Part shown: positions 58,185 to 64,000 of the stretch, piece by piece
Position numbering within the stretch: position 1 is the stretch's first letter
Layout: every line of letters begins with the position of its first letter
Source of the DNA: an uncultured bacterium
GTDB lineage: Bacteria > Joyebacterota > Joyebacteria > Joyebacterales > Joyebacteraceae
DNA: 64,000 nt
Direction: 5' to 3'
Assembly: GCA_964521425.1 (NCBI GenBank)
Contig: CAZFRO010000011.1
Span: 13,534-77,533, forward strand
Notes under the pieces: model-generated
Databases searched by the model: none
Seen by the model: only the letters and a program-made list of their open reading frames with translations
Told to the model about the DNA's origin: nothing
Made by a program: the position numbers and the translations under genes

Positions 58185-60320
<2,136 letters not shown>

Positions 60321-60360
60321 CCGCCGGCATCCTCTGCGGCGCCGAACTCAAGAGAGACAG

Positions 60361-61233
60361 GTGATATCGATGGAAGCGAGCATGCGCGCTGCGATACGTA
60401 CGGCCCTTGACGAGGACGTGGGGACCGGTGACGTTACGACGGAATCGACGGTGCCCGAGGGGCACCGCTCGCGGGCGACGATCGTGGCCAAGGAAGAGGG
60501 TGTCATCGCGGGTCTCAAGGTGGCGGAGGCGGTCTTCCGTGAGCTTGACCCGGATATCGACATAAACGTCCGTGTTATCGATGGGGAGCACGTGGCGCAC
60601 GGGGATCTGATCGCCGAACTCACGGGAAGGACGCGCGCGATTCTCACAGGCGAACGCGTTGCGCTCAATTTCCTGGCCAGGCTGTCGGGCGTAGCCACGA
60701 TGACCGCGAAGTACGCGGACGTGCTCCGCGGTACCGGTGTTGTCCTGCTCGATACACGTAAGACGACACCAGGCATGCGGCTCCTGGAGAAGTACGCGGT
60801 TGGGATAGGCGGAGGGGCGAACCACAGGATCGGGCTTTGGGACATGGCCCTCATCAAGGAGAACCACATCACCGCCGCCGGCGGCATCGGTCCCGCCGTA
60901 TCCAGCGTGAGGAAGAGCTACCCCGATCTCTCGGTGGAGGTCGAGGTGAGAAACCTCGATGAACTTAACGAGGCGCTCAAGGCGGACGTTGACCGCGTGA
61001 TGCTCGATAACATGTCGATCGATGAAATGCGCCGGGCCATCCAGACGGCCGGCGAGCATGACCATCCCGCGGACGTCGAGATCTCCGGAGGCGTGACCCT
61101 CGATGGCCTGGCAGCGATTGCCGAGCTTGGTCCGGGCTTCATCTCCGTTGGGGCACTGACACACTCAGCTCCAGCTCTCGACCTCAGCCTTCTTGTGGAA
61201 GACATCGCAGATGAAACCCGACCCGCGGATTGA
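60361..61233 (+). CDS. nadC: Nicotinate-nucleotide pyrophosphorylase (carboxylating), quinolinate phosphoribosyltransferase.
   Basis: LDEDVGTGDVTT..., RKTTPGMRLLEKYAVGIGGGANHRIGLWDMALIKENHI, MLDNMS, ISGGVT motifs. Confidence 0.9.
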   Translation: MISMEASMRAAIRTALDEDVGTGDVTTESTVPEGHRSRATIVAKEEGVIAGLKVAEAVFRELDPDIDINVRVIDGEHVAHGDLIAELTGRTRAILTGERVALNFLARLSGVATMTAKYADVLRGTGVVLLDTRKTTPGMRLLEKYAVGIGGGANHRIGLWDMALIKENHITAAGGIGPAVSSVRKSYPDLSVEVEVRNLDELNEALKADVDRVMLDNMSIDEMRRAIQTAGEHDHPADVEISGGVTLDGLAAIAELGPGFISVGALTHSAPALDLSLLVEDIADETRPAD

Positions 61234-61966
61234 CTGGGACATCACGTGGATGGATGAGGTCACATCCACGAACGCTCTCGCGCTCGACGTGGCGAAGTCT
61301 GGCTGCTCGGAAGGCGCGGTCATCGTCGCCAGATCTCAGACAATGGGACGCGGGCGTCGCGGGAACGTGTGGCACTCTCCCGTGGGCGGCCTCTGGTTCT
61401 CGCTCGTCCTGAGGCCGGAGCTTAAGGGAGATGAACTGTGGGGGCTTACCGCGCTCTCCGCACTGTCCGCCGTTGCGGGCGTTCGCAACCTGACTGGCCT
61501 TTCGGTAGGGATCAAGTGGCCCAACGATCTCTACCTTGATGGGAGGAAACTGGGCGGGGTCATGGCCGAATCGTCTGGGGGCGCCGTCGTCATCGGAATA
61601 GGGATCAATGCGAACGTCAAGCCCACGGATCTGCCGAGTGTAGAGTGGTATCCGGTCACATCACTTCTTGACGCAGGTGGTGAGAGCGTCGATCCGGCTC
61701 TCTTGCTCGATGGGATCCTCTCGGAACTCAGCGAGCGATACAGGCTCCTGGTGGAGCAGGGGTTCTCCGCCCTCCTTGCAGAGTGGCGCGAGCGGTCCGT
61801 CGTGCTGGGGGAACGTGTGCATGTGGTGTGTGACGGGAGTGCTTTGACGGGGACCGCGGTCGAGCTTGACGAGCGTGGTGGCATCGTAGTCAGACTGGAG
61901 GACGGGACCGAGCGGCGCTTTGAGCCACGTGCGGGCGTCAGCCTGGGGTTGAGGGATTCACCTTGA
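61193..61966 (+). CDS. birA: Biotin--[acetyl-CoA-carboxylase] ligase, group I (no HTH).
   Basis: QTMGRGRRGNVWHSPVGGLWFSLVLRP (GRGRRG biotin-binding loop), KWPNDLYLDGRKLGG. The start may be the internal Met at 61211. Overlaps the nadC 3' end. Confidence 0.85.
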   Translation: MWKTSQMKPDPRIDWDITWMDEVTSTNALALDVAKSGCSEGAVIVARSQTMGRGRRGNVWHSPVGGLWFSLVLRPELKGDELWGLTALSALSAVAGVRNLTGLSVGIKWPNDLYLDGRKLGGVMAESSGGAVVIGIGINANVKPTDLPSVEWYPVTSLLDAGGESVDPALLLDGILSELSERYRLLVEQGFSALLAEWRERSVVLGERVHVVCDGSALTGTAVELDERGGIVVRLEDGTERRFEPRAGVSLGLRDSP

Positions 61967-62020
61967 CAGGGACCGGAGAATTGCCGTATTTTGGCTAAGA
62001 GTTTGCTACTTAGCTGAATA

Positions 62021-62092
62021 AGGCTAAGAAGCCAGAATTAGCTGAATAAGGCTAAGAAGCCAGAATTAGCTGAATAAGGCTAACTAGATGAG
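62021..62092. repeat. AT-rich 28-bp tandem direct repeat (agctgaataaggctaagaagccagaatt), 2.6 copies, immediately upstream of the SatD-like gene.
   Basis: Identical copies at 62021-62048 and 62049-62076, plus a partial copy at 62077-62092. The ggctaaga core also occurs at 61995. Strong local GC drop in a high-GC genome. Confidence 0.85.
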
Positions 62093-62103
62093 AAGGGCCG
62101 ATC

Positions 62104-62748
62104 ATGGGGAAGACCACTGATCAGACATTCGTGGCTGTGATAGGGGATCTGTGCGGATCCCGGCAGGCGGCTGACCGTCAGCGCACGCAGGTTCGTCTTG
62201 AGCAAGCCATGGCGCGCGTAAACGAGGTCTTCGCCGGTGACCTCACGGCGGGCTTCCTGGTAACACTCGGCGATGAGTTCCAGGGGCTTCTGCCCATACC
62301 AGACAAGGTAATGGACATCATCGCGGAGCTGGAGTCAGCGCTGACTGGGATACCGGTGAGATACGGGATCGGTATCGGCACACTGGTGACGCCGATCAAG
62401 CGAACAGCTGTAGGGATGGACGGTCCGTGCTTCCACCTGGCGCGGGACGCGGTTGAGAGAGGGAAGGGTGAGAATCGTTGGGTCACGGTTGCAGGATTCG
62501 GGCAGGCTCGTGACAAACTCATGAACGGTATACTGAACCTCATGGGCGCCCTCAGGGGCCAGTGGACGGAGATACAGGCGGAGACCTTTCATGCCGCCCG
62601 CACTGCCGACAAGCAGAAACAAGTGGCCGCGGCTCGGAACGTCGCCGAATCGACGGTTAGTAGGTCGCTCAAGTCCGCTCACCATGATCCCATGATTGAG
62701 GCCGAGGCAATCGTAGTACATCTTCTCGAAGGTGGAGTCGTGGAATGA
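62104..62748 (+). CDS. SatD-like protein: N-terminal nucleotidyl-cyclase/GGDEF-like palm domain plus a C-terminal sigma70-region-4-like HTH.
   Basis: FVAVIGDLCGSR...FLVTLGDEFQGLL...RYGIGIGTLV...AVGMDGPCFHLARDA parallels the class III cyclase layout (FxDIVGFT...IGDA...RIGIHTG...GDTVNLASRME). C-terminal KQVAAARNVAESTVSRSLKSA is an HTH. 214 aa. Confidence 0.55.
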   Translation: MGKTTDQTFVAVIGDLCGSRQAADRQRTQVRLEQAMARVNEVFAGDLTAGFLVTLGDEFQGLLPIPDKVMDIIAELESALTGIPVRYGIGIGTLVTPIKRTAVGMDGPCFHLARDAVERGKGENRWVTVAGFGQARDKLMNGILNLMGALRGQWTEIQAETFHAARTADKQKQVAAARNVAESTVSRSLKSAHHDPMIEAEAIVVHLLEGGVVE

Positions 62749-63521
62749 ACCTCGGCATGGAGACCTTCATAGGCAGCAATGCCGGCGTGCTTCTCGTTCT
62801 GCTCGTGGGCGGACACGTGCTGGCTGATTTCCTCGTGCAGACCGAGAGCGTTGCCAGAGAGAAGGAGACGGCCGCCGGCGCGCTTTTCAAACACGGGATG
62901 GCGACACTTGTGACGCACGCGCTTCTCCTTCTTCCGTACCGGAACGCGGGTGTGTTCCTGGGAATAGCAGCACTCGCCGTCGTCCACACGTTTGCGGATT
63001 GGGCGAGACGCGCCATAGAGAGAGGAATCCCTGAGAGAGCGCTCCCGGGCTTCCTGCTGGATCAGCTCGGGCACCTTGCTGTCGCGGTGCTCCTCTGGTG
63101 GCTCTTCGTGCGGGCCGGTGTTCACGAGAGTTCTGCCGTCTGGTTTTCGCCGGACGTGGCGGCTGTGACTGTGAAGGTGCTGGTCGTTGCCGCCGGCTAC
63201 GCATTCTGTTGGAAGGGCGGCACCGCCGTTGTGAGAAACCTCCTGGCTCGCTATCCTCAGGTGCTTCCCGAGACAACAGAGAAAGCAGGGCGAGCCGAGT
63301 ACGCGATGGGGCGTACGATCGGAGTGCTCGAGCGGTTCATCATCTTCACGCTGGTGCTGTTTGGGCAGTGGGGGGCGCTAGGGTTCGTGATAGCGGCGAA
63401 ATCGATCGCACGATTCAAGGAACTGGAGAACCAATCATTCGCGGACTACTACCTTATGGGAACGCTGGCCAGCGTACTCTCCGCTATAGTAGCGGGGATC
63501 ATCGTGAGTGCCGTCATCTGA
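62745..63521 (+). CDS. DUF3307-like polytopic membrane protein (partner of SatD-like genes).
   Basis: About 7 TM helices. Duplicated H-x-x-A-D-[FW] motif (HVLADFLVQT and HTFADWARRAIERG). Start overlaps the SatD-like stop (ATGA). Confidence 0.5.
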   Translation: MNLGMETFIGSNAGVLLVLLVGGHVLADFLVQTESVAREKETAAGALFKHGMATLVTHALLLLPYRNAGVFLGIAALAVVHTFADWARRAIERGIPERALPGFLLDQLGHLAVAVLLWWLFVRAGVHESSAVWFSPDVAAVTVKVLVVAAGYAFCWKGGTAVVRNLLARYPQVLPETTEKAGRAEYAMGRTIGVLERFIIFTLVLFGQWGALGFVIAAKSIARFKELENQSFADYYLMGTLASVLSAIVAGIIVSAVI

Positions 63522-63553
63522 GATCTGGAAGCGCGCGCCGCGCGACTTGAGAG

Positions 63554-64000
63554 GACTTGACTGATGCTCCTGGCAATCGACGTTGGAAACACCAACACGG
63601 TCCTCGGGTTCCTCAGCGGAACGGACGTGCTCGGCAGCTGGCGCGTCGCCACGAATCGTATGCAGACCCCTGACGAACTCGGGTTTCGGGTGAATGAGAT
63701 CTGCGATATGGCCTGCGGTGGACTCGAGCAGATCGAGGGTGTCGTGATCTGCTCCGTCGTGCCGCCGCTGACATCGGCATATGTCCGCATGTCGAAGAAC
63801 CTGCTGAAACTTCCACCGGTCGTCCTGAGATCCGACACCGACATGGACATCACGATCGACTACTACGATCCCACCGAGGTAGGGGCCGACCGATTGGCGA
63901 ACGCGGTGGCGGTGCACGAACTGATAGGCGGTCCGGTCATTGTCGTCGACTTCGGGACGGCGACGACGTTCGATGTGATCACAGCCGACGGCCACTACCG
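63554..64000 (+). CDS. coaX: Type III pantothenate kinase CoaX, 3' partial (runs off the window).
   Basis: MLLAIDVGNTNTVLGF...VVICSVVP...VVVDFGTATTFDVI, the actin-fold Bvg accessory factor family. No stop before 64000. Confidence 0.85.

Follow-up and report, generated by a model that had tools for sequence, protein, structure and literature searches.

What kind of protein is SatD, and is its N-terminal half related to the enzymes that produce nucleotide signals? This question is raised by satD, a gene in a 64,000-nucleotide (nt) stretch of DNA, called the window here, from an uncultured bacterium of the Joyebacterota (GenBank assembly GCA_964521425.1, contig CAZFRO010000011.1, positions 13,534 to 77,533 of the forward strand). 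The gene is followed by one for a membrane protein of the DUF3307 family. An original prediction had matched the first 130 amino acids (aa) of SatD motif by motif to the palm domain of class III nucleotidyl cyclases and GGDEF proteins, and had described a fusion of this domain to a helix-turn-helix (HTH) domain. The computational analysis reported here suggests that SatD probably binds a nucleotide, and may also convert it, to control its own operon. A dimeric nucleotide site coupled to autoregulation is the reading that we favour, with confidence a little above even. Within this dimeric model, catalysis at the site is an evenly balanced matter.

Predicted fold of the N-terminal half

The four motifs on which the original prediction was built were all found in the satD reading frame. 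These are VIGDLCGS (aa 12–19), TLGDEFQGLL (aa 54–63), RYGIGIGTLV (aa 86–95), and AVGMDGPCFHLARDA (aa 102–116). An AlphaFold2 model of SatD, built on 62 homologues, reached a predicted local distance difference test score (pLDDT) of 93.9 and a predicted template modelling score of 0.89. It consists of a beta-alpha-beta-beta-alpha-beta palm at residues 9–130, which is followed by five helices up to residue 209. The strands of the palm lie at residues 9–16, 49–53, 58–63, 85–92, and 127–130, and its helices at residues 25–42, 66–79, and 108–123. In this model, strand 1 has D15 at its C-terminal end, the GDEF segment lies in the beta2–beta3 hairpin, RYGIGIG belongs to strand 4, and DGPCFHLAR begins helix 3.

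Comparison of the model with the PDB by Foldseek returned 45 matches at an expect value (E) of 1e-3 or lower, and all 45 were palm domains of the cyclase, GGDEF, or Cas10 type. The best match was the Rv1900c cyclase (1ybu; E 1.7e-5, probability 1.00), and the top matches, such as 1ybu, 3et6, and 5d0h, covered E values from 1.7e-5 to 1e-3 with a probability of 1.00 and template modelling (TM) scores of about 0.5 per target. The majority were class III cyclases, namely Rv1900c, the Chlamydomonas guanylate cyclase (3et6), Ma1120, bPAC, RhoGC, CyaC, mammalian adenylyl cyclase, and soluble guanylate cyclase. The remainder were two Cas10 structures (3x1l and 6mut) and two GGDEF structures (6hbz and 4zvf). 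Just beyond the cut stood GTP cyclohydrolase III (2qv6) and the C-terminal GGDEF-like and HTH fragment of MabR/Rv2242 (9f80; 225 columns, E 1.1e-3). No ferredoxin-like family other than palms was found among the matches at E 1e-3 or lower, and therefore the fold assignment is specific. The AlphaFold check that had been suggested for the original prediction thus returned a predicted palm, with the acidic motifs at the palm metal-ligand positions as judged by topology. At the level of the predicted structure, the N-terminal half of SatD is confirmed as a cyclase/GGDEF-type palm.

Profile comparisons with GGDEF domains and class III cyclases

No GGDEF or cyclase gene that could serve as a comparator was found in the window or in the flanking sequences covered. 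The GGDEF comparator was composed of 81 domains from viral contigs, which were gathered with consensus-like queries and checked by tblastn and by the motifs DxDxFK and GG[DE]EF. The class III cyclase comparator was composed of 44 proteins with a verified Pfam PF00211 label, also gathered with consensus-like queries. Alignment of the SatD(1–133) profile with the GGDEF profile by hhalign was in register over 125 columns, with a local score of 29.7 (E 2e-4, probability 46%). The global score was 29.4 (E 1.5e-5, probability 57%), about 10 standard deviations above the shuffles. Sixty column-shuffled controls gave 13.8 ± 3.1 (maximum 24.4) in local mode and 3.7 ± 2.4 (maximum 11.7) in global mode. 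The reversed profile gave 16.0 and 6.8 against GGDEF, respectively, and DUF3307 against GGDEF, in local mode only, gave 15.9. Class III cyclases against GGDEF, a pair of accepted homology, gave 28.8 in local and 3.2 in global mode. By these profile scores, the SatD–GGDEF signal is as strong as that between two families accepted as homologous.

In the aligned pairs, D15 of SatD falls on the DxD motif of GGDEF, at its first Asp, and R20 on the Lys that follows. G56-D57-E58-F59 lies on G-[DE]-E-F, and the RfGlGxG strand lies on TiSiG. Further on, AR-x-A-x(4)-K-x(3)-R-W-V lies on AD-x-ALY-x-AK-x-x-GRN-x-V. Profile–profile comparison was the other check suggested for the original prediction, and it detected GGDEF in register with both acidic motifs on known metal-ligand positions. 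The motif-by-motif palm alignment was upheld in this way for GGDEF, but not by the class III cyclase profile as a whole. Residues 44–133 alone gave a weak in-register match to the cyclase profile (E 0.006), in which TlGDEF lies on TIGDAYM and RfGlGxG on RIGIHTG. The hhalign alignment of the longer constructs with the cyclase profile was rejected as out of register, with SatD helix 2 laid on cyclase helix 1. Helix 2 and strand 4 of SatD (aa 64–89) were repeatedly matched to helix 1 and strand 2 of the cyclases. This shift in register, a trap for motif comparison by eye, probably arises from the internal beta-alpha-beta pseudo-symmetry of the palm fold.

SatD is a member of the Pfam SatD family (PF16264), for which it scores 109.6 bits over residues 9–192 where the cut-off is 29 (E 2.2e-31). 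Its match to Pfam GGDEF_2 (PF17853) at residues 6–95 is below threshold, at 15.6 bits where 24.5 are required (E 0.019), and weak GGDEF_2 matches were found in 5 of 62 SatD members (E ≤ 1). By sequence, SatD is a member of the Pfam SatD family only, and membership of Guanylate_cyc and GGDEF failed at this level. The palm fold named in the original prediction is retained, but its nearness to class III cyclases does not hold in sequence, where direct comparison with the cyclase profile was unsuccessful. By sequence, SatD stands closer to GGDEF domains, and by compact structure it stands closer to class III cyclases.

A rival explanation is a likeness of fold with no function in common. The domain could be a ferredoxin-like fold that only resembles the palm, and the invariant residues would then serve, for example, docking to DUF3307 or a non-nucleotide chemistry. 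We regard this explanation as improbable. It agrees with the hhalign probabilities, which are moderate at 46–57%, with the TM scores of about 0.5, and with the failure of sequence-only searches of the PDB to reach cyclases or GGDEF domains (phmmer and profile hmmsearch of SatD returned no palm matches and only weak HTH matches). It does not account for the restriction of the top 45 structural matches to cyclase, GGDEF, and Cas10 palms, to the exclusion of other ferredoxin-like folds. It also does not account for a whole-domain GGDEF alignment in register that puts invariant acidic residues on the two metal ligands, with a score far above the shuffles and equal to the cyclase–GGDEF control.

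Conserved residues of the palm

Conservation was examined in an alignment of 133 non-identical SatD proteins from Eisenbacteria, Gemmatimonadota, Fibrobacterota, Clostridia, Chloroflexota, haloarchaea, and Thermoplasmatales. Seventeen positions in the palm are at least 99% conserved, compared with one in the HTH half. The residues I13, D15, S19, R25, Q29, T54, G56, D57, Q60, G90, G92, T96, D106, G107, and R114 are invariant. E58 and A113 are each retained in 132 of the 133 proteins, and position 20 is Arg or Lys in all of them. The original prediction had stated that both putative metal-binding acidic positions are kept, and this extends to all members of this diverse set. On the predicted model, the conserved positions would fall where strands 1 and 4 end and helices 1 and 3 begin, and also in the hairpin and in the loop that follows strand 1. 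Judged by topology, the face that they mark would be the one that bears the active site in cyclases and GGDEF domains.

Several likenesses to class III cyclases (Rv1900c 1ybu, Ma1120, and the mammalian adenylyl cyclase pair C1–C2), which are the best structural matches of SatD, can be seen at these positions. An Asp at the end of strand 1 is common to SatD and the cyclases, as is a Gly-preceded Asp in the beta2–beta3 hairpin, where SatD has T-x-G-D and the cyclases have T-I-G-D. The Gly-rich strand 4 reads RfGlGxG in SatD and RIGIHTG in the cyclases, and each carries an invariant Arg on the helix that comes next. In SatD the candidate for this residue is R114 on helix 3; a conserved Asn is not evident, and the nearby position is H/Y111. 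There is also no significant sequence or profile match between SatD and the class III cyclases, and neither the canonical specificity pair, Lys/Asp for ATP or Glu/Cys for GTP, nor the Asn was identified in SatD. The SatD palm is fused to an HTH domain and not to a sensor domain.

GGDEF proteins (PleD, DgcB 6hbz, and DosC 4zvf) share the in-register profile alignment of 125 columns. The SatD signature reads T-L-G-D-E-F, in which GDEF is conserved, but the first Gly of GGDEF is not, as position 55 is L, A, T, V, or I in the family and Gly never predominates there. The guanine-reading segment N-D...G-H-x-x-G-D of GGDEF domains is replaced or deleted in SatD. No RxxD inhibitory site (I-site) was found before the SatD hairpin in the hhalign alignment. 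With the guanine-binding residues and the I-site absent, SatD is not a diguanylate cyclase.

A probable composite site indicated by tandem SatD proteins

Among the best 150 SatD relatives, six are proteins of 410–428 aa in which a complete SatD unit, with a palm and an HTH domain, occurs twice (P0401, P0423, P0424, P0425, P0463, and P0464; loci L180–L183). For two of these proteins, the genes were verified on independent contigs. DUF3307 adjoins the tandem satD genes in reversed order, with DUF3307 first. Unit 1 retains D15, S19, R/K20, R25, Q29, G56, and D57 in all six proteins. Unit 2 has lost this set in all six, where D15 is replaced by R, A, C, or S, D57 is replaced by H or Y, and the R25 region is deleted. 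Conversely, Q60, D106, and R114 are absent from unit 1 and retained in unit 2 in six of six, and T96 is lost from unit 1 in five of six and retained in unit 2 in all. E58 is kept in every unit 2, and in unit 1 it is Glu in four proteins and Gln in two. F59 is retained in both units of all six. The tandem proteins are only 31–50% identical to each other, which indicates that the complementary pattern is held by selection.

In heterodimeric class III cyclases, such as mammalian adenylyl cyclase C1–C2, one chain provides the two metal-binding Asp residues and the other provides the base-specifying and transition-state residues. This division of the site residues between C1 and C2 is established and is credited to Tesmer et al. 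and to Linder & Schultz. The complementary degeneration of the tandem SatD units mirrors it, and from this likeness we infer that SatD forms a head-to-tail dimer. The invariant residues would then be the metal/phosphate half and the trans-acting half of one composite pocket, and one composite site probably spans the dimer. Because each tandem protein keeps exactly one full residue set, one intact pocket would be enough for function. Q60 and D106 may be the counterparts of the cyclase substrate-specifying pair, as both segregate with R114 in the tandem forms. The quaternary logic drawn from the tandem proteins would be that of class III cyclases, which the original prediction did not foresee. 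It implies one composite site per dimer, whereas GGDEF domains have two self-contained GTP sites that meet transiently. Read from the sequences, the tandem pattern argues for a real nucleotide–metal site and leans to catalysis, without proving turnover.

The chief alternative is a non-catalytic sensor, in which the palm only binds a ligand and never turns it over. The ligand would be a nucleotide, such as a nucleoside triphosphate or a second messenger, or another phosphorylated metabolite with a metal, and binding alone would switch the HTH domain, as is assumed for PucR-type regulators. We consider this a genuine possibility, though a doubtful one. A sensor fused to an HTH domain is the typical one-component architecture. 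The palm of SatD is a minimal one in which the base-binding residues of GGDEF find no match, and Pfam matches to GGDEF and Guanylate_cyc are absent. The order of modules in PucR/CdaR-type regulators (MabR/Rv2242 9f80 and BAD_0249 3onq) is also that of SatD, in which the palm-like domain precedes the helical DNA-binding domain, and PucR/MabR combine a GGDEF-like fold and an HTH domain without catalytic motifs (PMC11617747; Foldseek 9f80). However, degenerate palm sensors normally lose the acidic pair, and the A-site of MabR reads HGTWL and was judged non-catalytic (PMC11617747). The acidic pair of SatD is invariant, unlike that of MabR. SatD retains D15, D57, and E58 together with an invariant Arg on the helix that bears the transition-state Arg of cyclases (132–133 of 133 proteins). 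Moreover, the tandem forms preserve exactly one full residue set, as in active heterodimeric cyclases. SatD differs from PucR-type regulators in three further respects, since its HTH domain is LuxR/sigma70-region-4-like and not HTH_30, it has no N-terminal sensor domain, and it has an obligate membrane partner.

DNA-binding half and candidate operator

The five C-terminal helices of the AlphaFold2 model lie at residues 134–151, 156–167, 171–178, 182–191, and 194–209. Among the 62 SatD members searched against Pfam, Sigma70_r4 was matched in 16 and Sigma70_r4_2 in 10 (best E 1e-7), and GerE in 4 (best E 2e-8). HTH_30 of PucR was not among the Pfam matches listed for these members. The SatD family profile gave a weak match to GerE in the PDB (1fse, E 0.07). 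The fusion to a sigma70_r4/LuxR-like HTH domain in the original prediction is supported by the five helices and the family-level matches, but the window protein itself gave only a faint Pfam match of another kind (LacI, E 0.15).

The promoter-like site upstream of satD has 10 of 12 matches, with one such site found against 0.5 expected. TTGACA occurs at the equivalent place in the orthologous loci L005, L011–L013, L016, and L017. Between this site and the gene, each copy of a 28-bp repeat bears an 18-bp palindrome, TTAGCtgaataaGGCTAA, at positions 62,010–62,027, 62,038–62,055, and 62,066–62,083. The repeat unit consists of the palindrome TTAGCy-N6-GGCTAA and a 10-bp spacer. For the pattern TTAGC-N8-GCTAA, 0.03 occurrences would be expected in the window and three are present, all of them upstream of satD. 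In L005, L016, and L017, where SatD is 52–58% identical, TTAGCC-N6-GGCTAA stands directly after TTGACA-N17-TAATAT, and the surrounding DNA has diverged. The number of palindrome copies is four in L011, three in the window, two in L012–L014, and one in L005 and L017. These differences among close relatives imply that the repeat expands and contracts on short evolutionary time scales. No RNA family of Rfam was found in the repeat region or the 5' leader. The half-site sequence is kept without covariation, and together with the Rfam result this favours a protein operator over an RNA hairpin. A link between SatD and the upstream repeats had been raised only as possible, and the recurrence of the palindrome downstream of the promoter in orthologues with diverged flanks supports it. 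Autorepression by a SatD dimer would be the simplest reading of the palindrome.

Proposed mechanism and points against it

The favoured dimeric model can be described as follows. SatD would be a one-component transcription regulator, in which about 130 N-terminal residues form a minimal palm with a complete nucleotide–metal site. The two SatD molecules of a dimer would be arranged head to tail, in the manner of class III cyclases. Subunit 1 would supply the metal/phosphate half of the site (D15, S19, R20, R25, Q29, and D57), and subunit 2 would supply the base/ribose/transition-state half (Q60, T96, D106, and R114). The two C-terminal HTH domains of the dimer would bind TTAGCC-N6-GGCTAA directly downstream of the -10 box, and in this way SatD would repress its own two-gene operon of satD and DUF3307. 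Occupancy by a Mg-bound nucleoside triphosphate, and most likely its conversion, would decide closure of the dimer and its hold on DNA. DUF3307, as an obligate partner, would bring a membrane signal to SatD, or it would receive or destroy the product. SatD would thus work like a class III cyclase dimer wired to an HTH domain, as in the PucR-type GGDEF-like regulators. A parallel in principle only is found in bifunctional enzyme-repressors of the BirA type, since SatD would likewise bind a nucleotide substrate, dimerize, and repress its own operon through an HTH domain. The biotin ligase fold of BirA is unrelated to SatD, and the likeness would be one of analogy. Of the elements of this model, the analysis shows the fold, the conservation of residues, the complementary degeneration of the tandem units, the pairing of the two genes, and the conserved palindrome, and it infers the geometry of the dimer, nucleotide binding, catalysis, repression, and the part played by DUF3307.

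Several observations weigh against this model. Sensors fused to HTH domains are far commoner than enzymes fused to HTH domains. The SatD palm is about 50 residues shorter than a class III cyclase domain and has no dimerization arm. No Pfam GGDEF or Guanylate_cyc match was found for the window SatD or among the 62 members, and hhalign of full-length or N-terminal SatD against the class III cyclase profile was insignificant, with a probability of 3–4%. The guanine-binding Asn/Asp after DxD in GGDEF domains is unmatched in the SatD alignment and the cyclase Asn is not evident, and the substrate therefore cannot be named. The proximity of D15, D57, and R114 and the geometry of the dimer are suggested by topology. 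A single duplication is the probable origin of all the tandem proteins. That SatD would bind the palindrome is suggested by sequence recurrence, and the palindrome is recognized in the closest clade only.

In its strongest form, the proposal would give the transcription factor SatD a built-in minimal nucleotidyl cyclase or synthase that is class III-like and active, and would make satD–DUF3307 an unrecognized two-gene nucleotide-signalling module. We hold this form only tentatively and regard it as rather unlikely. If it is true, the nucleotide signal is possibly undescribed, because Q60, T96, and D106 match neither adenylyl, guanylyl, nor diguanylate cyclases. Occupancy by substrate or product would then set the DNA binding of SatD itself, and DUF3307, with its invariant His and Asp residues, would be a dedicated receptor, hydrolase, or input sensor. 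A catalytic SatD would be a cyclase fused directly to a DNA-binding domain, which would constitute a new branch of prokaryotic nucleotide signalling. A non-catalytic SatD would be an unusual palm sensor that retains the full catalytic constellation. A large family without an assigned function gains a testable hypothesis, namely a cyclase-type palm with an intact metal–nucleotide site that spans a dimer. The analysis also provides residues to mutate, a candidate operator, and the tandem proteins as ready-made natural heterodimers.

The DUF3307 partner

In 77 of 80 genome loci, the gene for the SatE-like membrane protein DUF3307 lies beside satD in the same orientation; of the three loci that depart from this, two are truncated by the end of a contig. 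No other neighbour of satD is conserved in these loci. The satD stop codon shares ATGA with the start of the DUF3307 gene, which suggests translational coupling. The AlphaFold2 model of DUF3307 (pLDDT 94.5) is all-helical with seven to eight membrane helices. It gave no meaningful fold match in the PDB (best E 0.27, TM ≤ 0.29), and its fold therefore offers no functional lead. The residues H24, D28, H81, D85, Q107, and H110 are invariant and suggest an intramembrane metal site, and a second conserved patch is formed by E196, R197, K219, and R223. The highly conserved C-terminal half of DUF3307 (GRTIGxLER...AAKSIARF) lies outside the Pfam model. DUF3307 could act by sensing the input, by receiving the product, or as a hydrolase.

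Among anti-phage systems, it is common for a nucleotide-generating palm enzyme and a membrane effector to form a two-gene module. The satD–DUF3307 pair could accordingly be read as a mobile defence or toxin–antitoxin-like module, with a palm signal generator and a membrane effector, and not as a housekeeping regulator. This is the least probable of the explanations considered and is very unlikely. A faint PADLOC match of SatD to Cas2b (E 0.038) could be taken in its favour, but PADLOC gave no family at a meaningful level for SatD and no match at all for DUF3307. Across the 80 loci, satD–DUF3307 has no recurrent mobile-element genes beside it, and SatD has its own HTH domain and a conserved operator-like palindrome at its own promoter. 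In the Eisenbacteria clade, the pair stands in a stable housekeeping neighbourhood (uvrB, nadC, birA, coaX, and groES/EL). The gene order rodZ-like/uvrB/nadC/birA/satD/DUF3307/coaX/groES/groEL is conserved in the window (58,185–64,000) and in L001 and L005–L007, which come from Eisenbacteria relatives with SatD proteins of 53–100% identity.

Distribution and features of the locus

A protein identical to the window SatD (P0001) is encoded on 24 public contigs. The closest genomes with SatD are metagenome-assembled genomes of Candidatus Eisenbacteria, with 82–95% identity. In a search of 1.84 billion cluster representatives (50% identity), 5,120 SatD relatives had E ≤ 1e-3, and 3,241 of them remained at E ≤ 1e-10. 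SatD is present in at least 554 species genomes, including those of Eisenbacteria, Gemmatimonadota, Clostridia, Chloroflexota, haloarchaea, and Thermoplasmatales. SatD–DUF3307 pairs with all invariant palm residues occur in the archaea Natronomonas, Halolamina, Haloferacaceae, and Thermoplasmatales (L035, L037, L038, L051–L053, and L058), which implies an ancient origin or transfer between domains. Literature searches on SatD, PF16264, and DUF3307 found no description of the fold or function of SatD. The few papers that mention SatD or its operon use only the label "acid tolerance", which is derived from the position of the operon in Streptococcus mutans. No NCBIfam model was found for the SatD protein. 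SatD may already be placed in the nucleotide-cyclase clan of Pfam, and a bare fold assignment may exist at the database level. The gene in the window is an ordinary member of a large family, and the novelty lies in what the family is.

Table 1. Features of the satD locus, with positions in the window.
Feature	Position	Strand	Basis or remark
Sigma-70-type promoter-like site	61,963–61,992	+	TTGACA 61,963–61,968; 18-nt spacer; TATTTT 61,987–61,992
GGCTAA half-site abutting the -10 hexamer	61,993–61,998	+	Read from sequence; same position in L005, L011–L014, and L017
28-bp tandem repeat, candidate SatD operators	62,010–62,093	+	Two perfect copies and a third at 75%
Ribosome-binding-site-like GAGAAGGG, purine-rich, Shine-Dalgarno-like	62,090–62,097	+	6 nt 5' of the satD ATG; read from sequence
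satD coding sequence	62,104–62,748	+	214 aa and stop; ATG 62,104, TGA 62,746–62,748
Palm domain (GGDEF/class III cyclase-like), aa 1–133	62,104–62,502	+	AlphaFold2 model, Foldseek, hhalign against GGDEF, residue conservation
D15 codon, candidate first metal-binding Asp, end of strand 1	62,146–62,148	+	133/133; aligned to first Asp of GGDEF DxD
G56-D57-E58-F59 codons, beta2–beta3 hairpin; D57 candidate second metal ligand	62,269–62,280	+	Aligned to GGEEF; weakly to cyclase IGD
D106-G-P-C-F-H-L-A-R114 codons, N-terminus of helix 3; D106 and R114 candidate trans-acting residues	62,419–62,445	+	D106, G107, and R114 133/133
Five-helix DNA-binding domain, aa 134–214, putative HTH of LuxR/sigma70-region-4 type	62,503–62,745	+	AlphaFold2, family-level Pfam, GerE profile
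DUF3307 polytopic membrane protein gene, 258 aa	62,745–63,521	+	Pfam PF11750, E 1e-13; start overlaps satD stop

An apparent 544-aa SatD–DUF3307 fusion (L032:2992–4626) was rejected as an artefact, because a masked run of N in the genome record joins the two reading frames. The birA gene of the window (61,193–61,966) has no HTH-family match among its Pfam matches.

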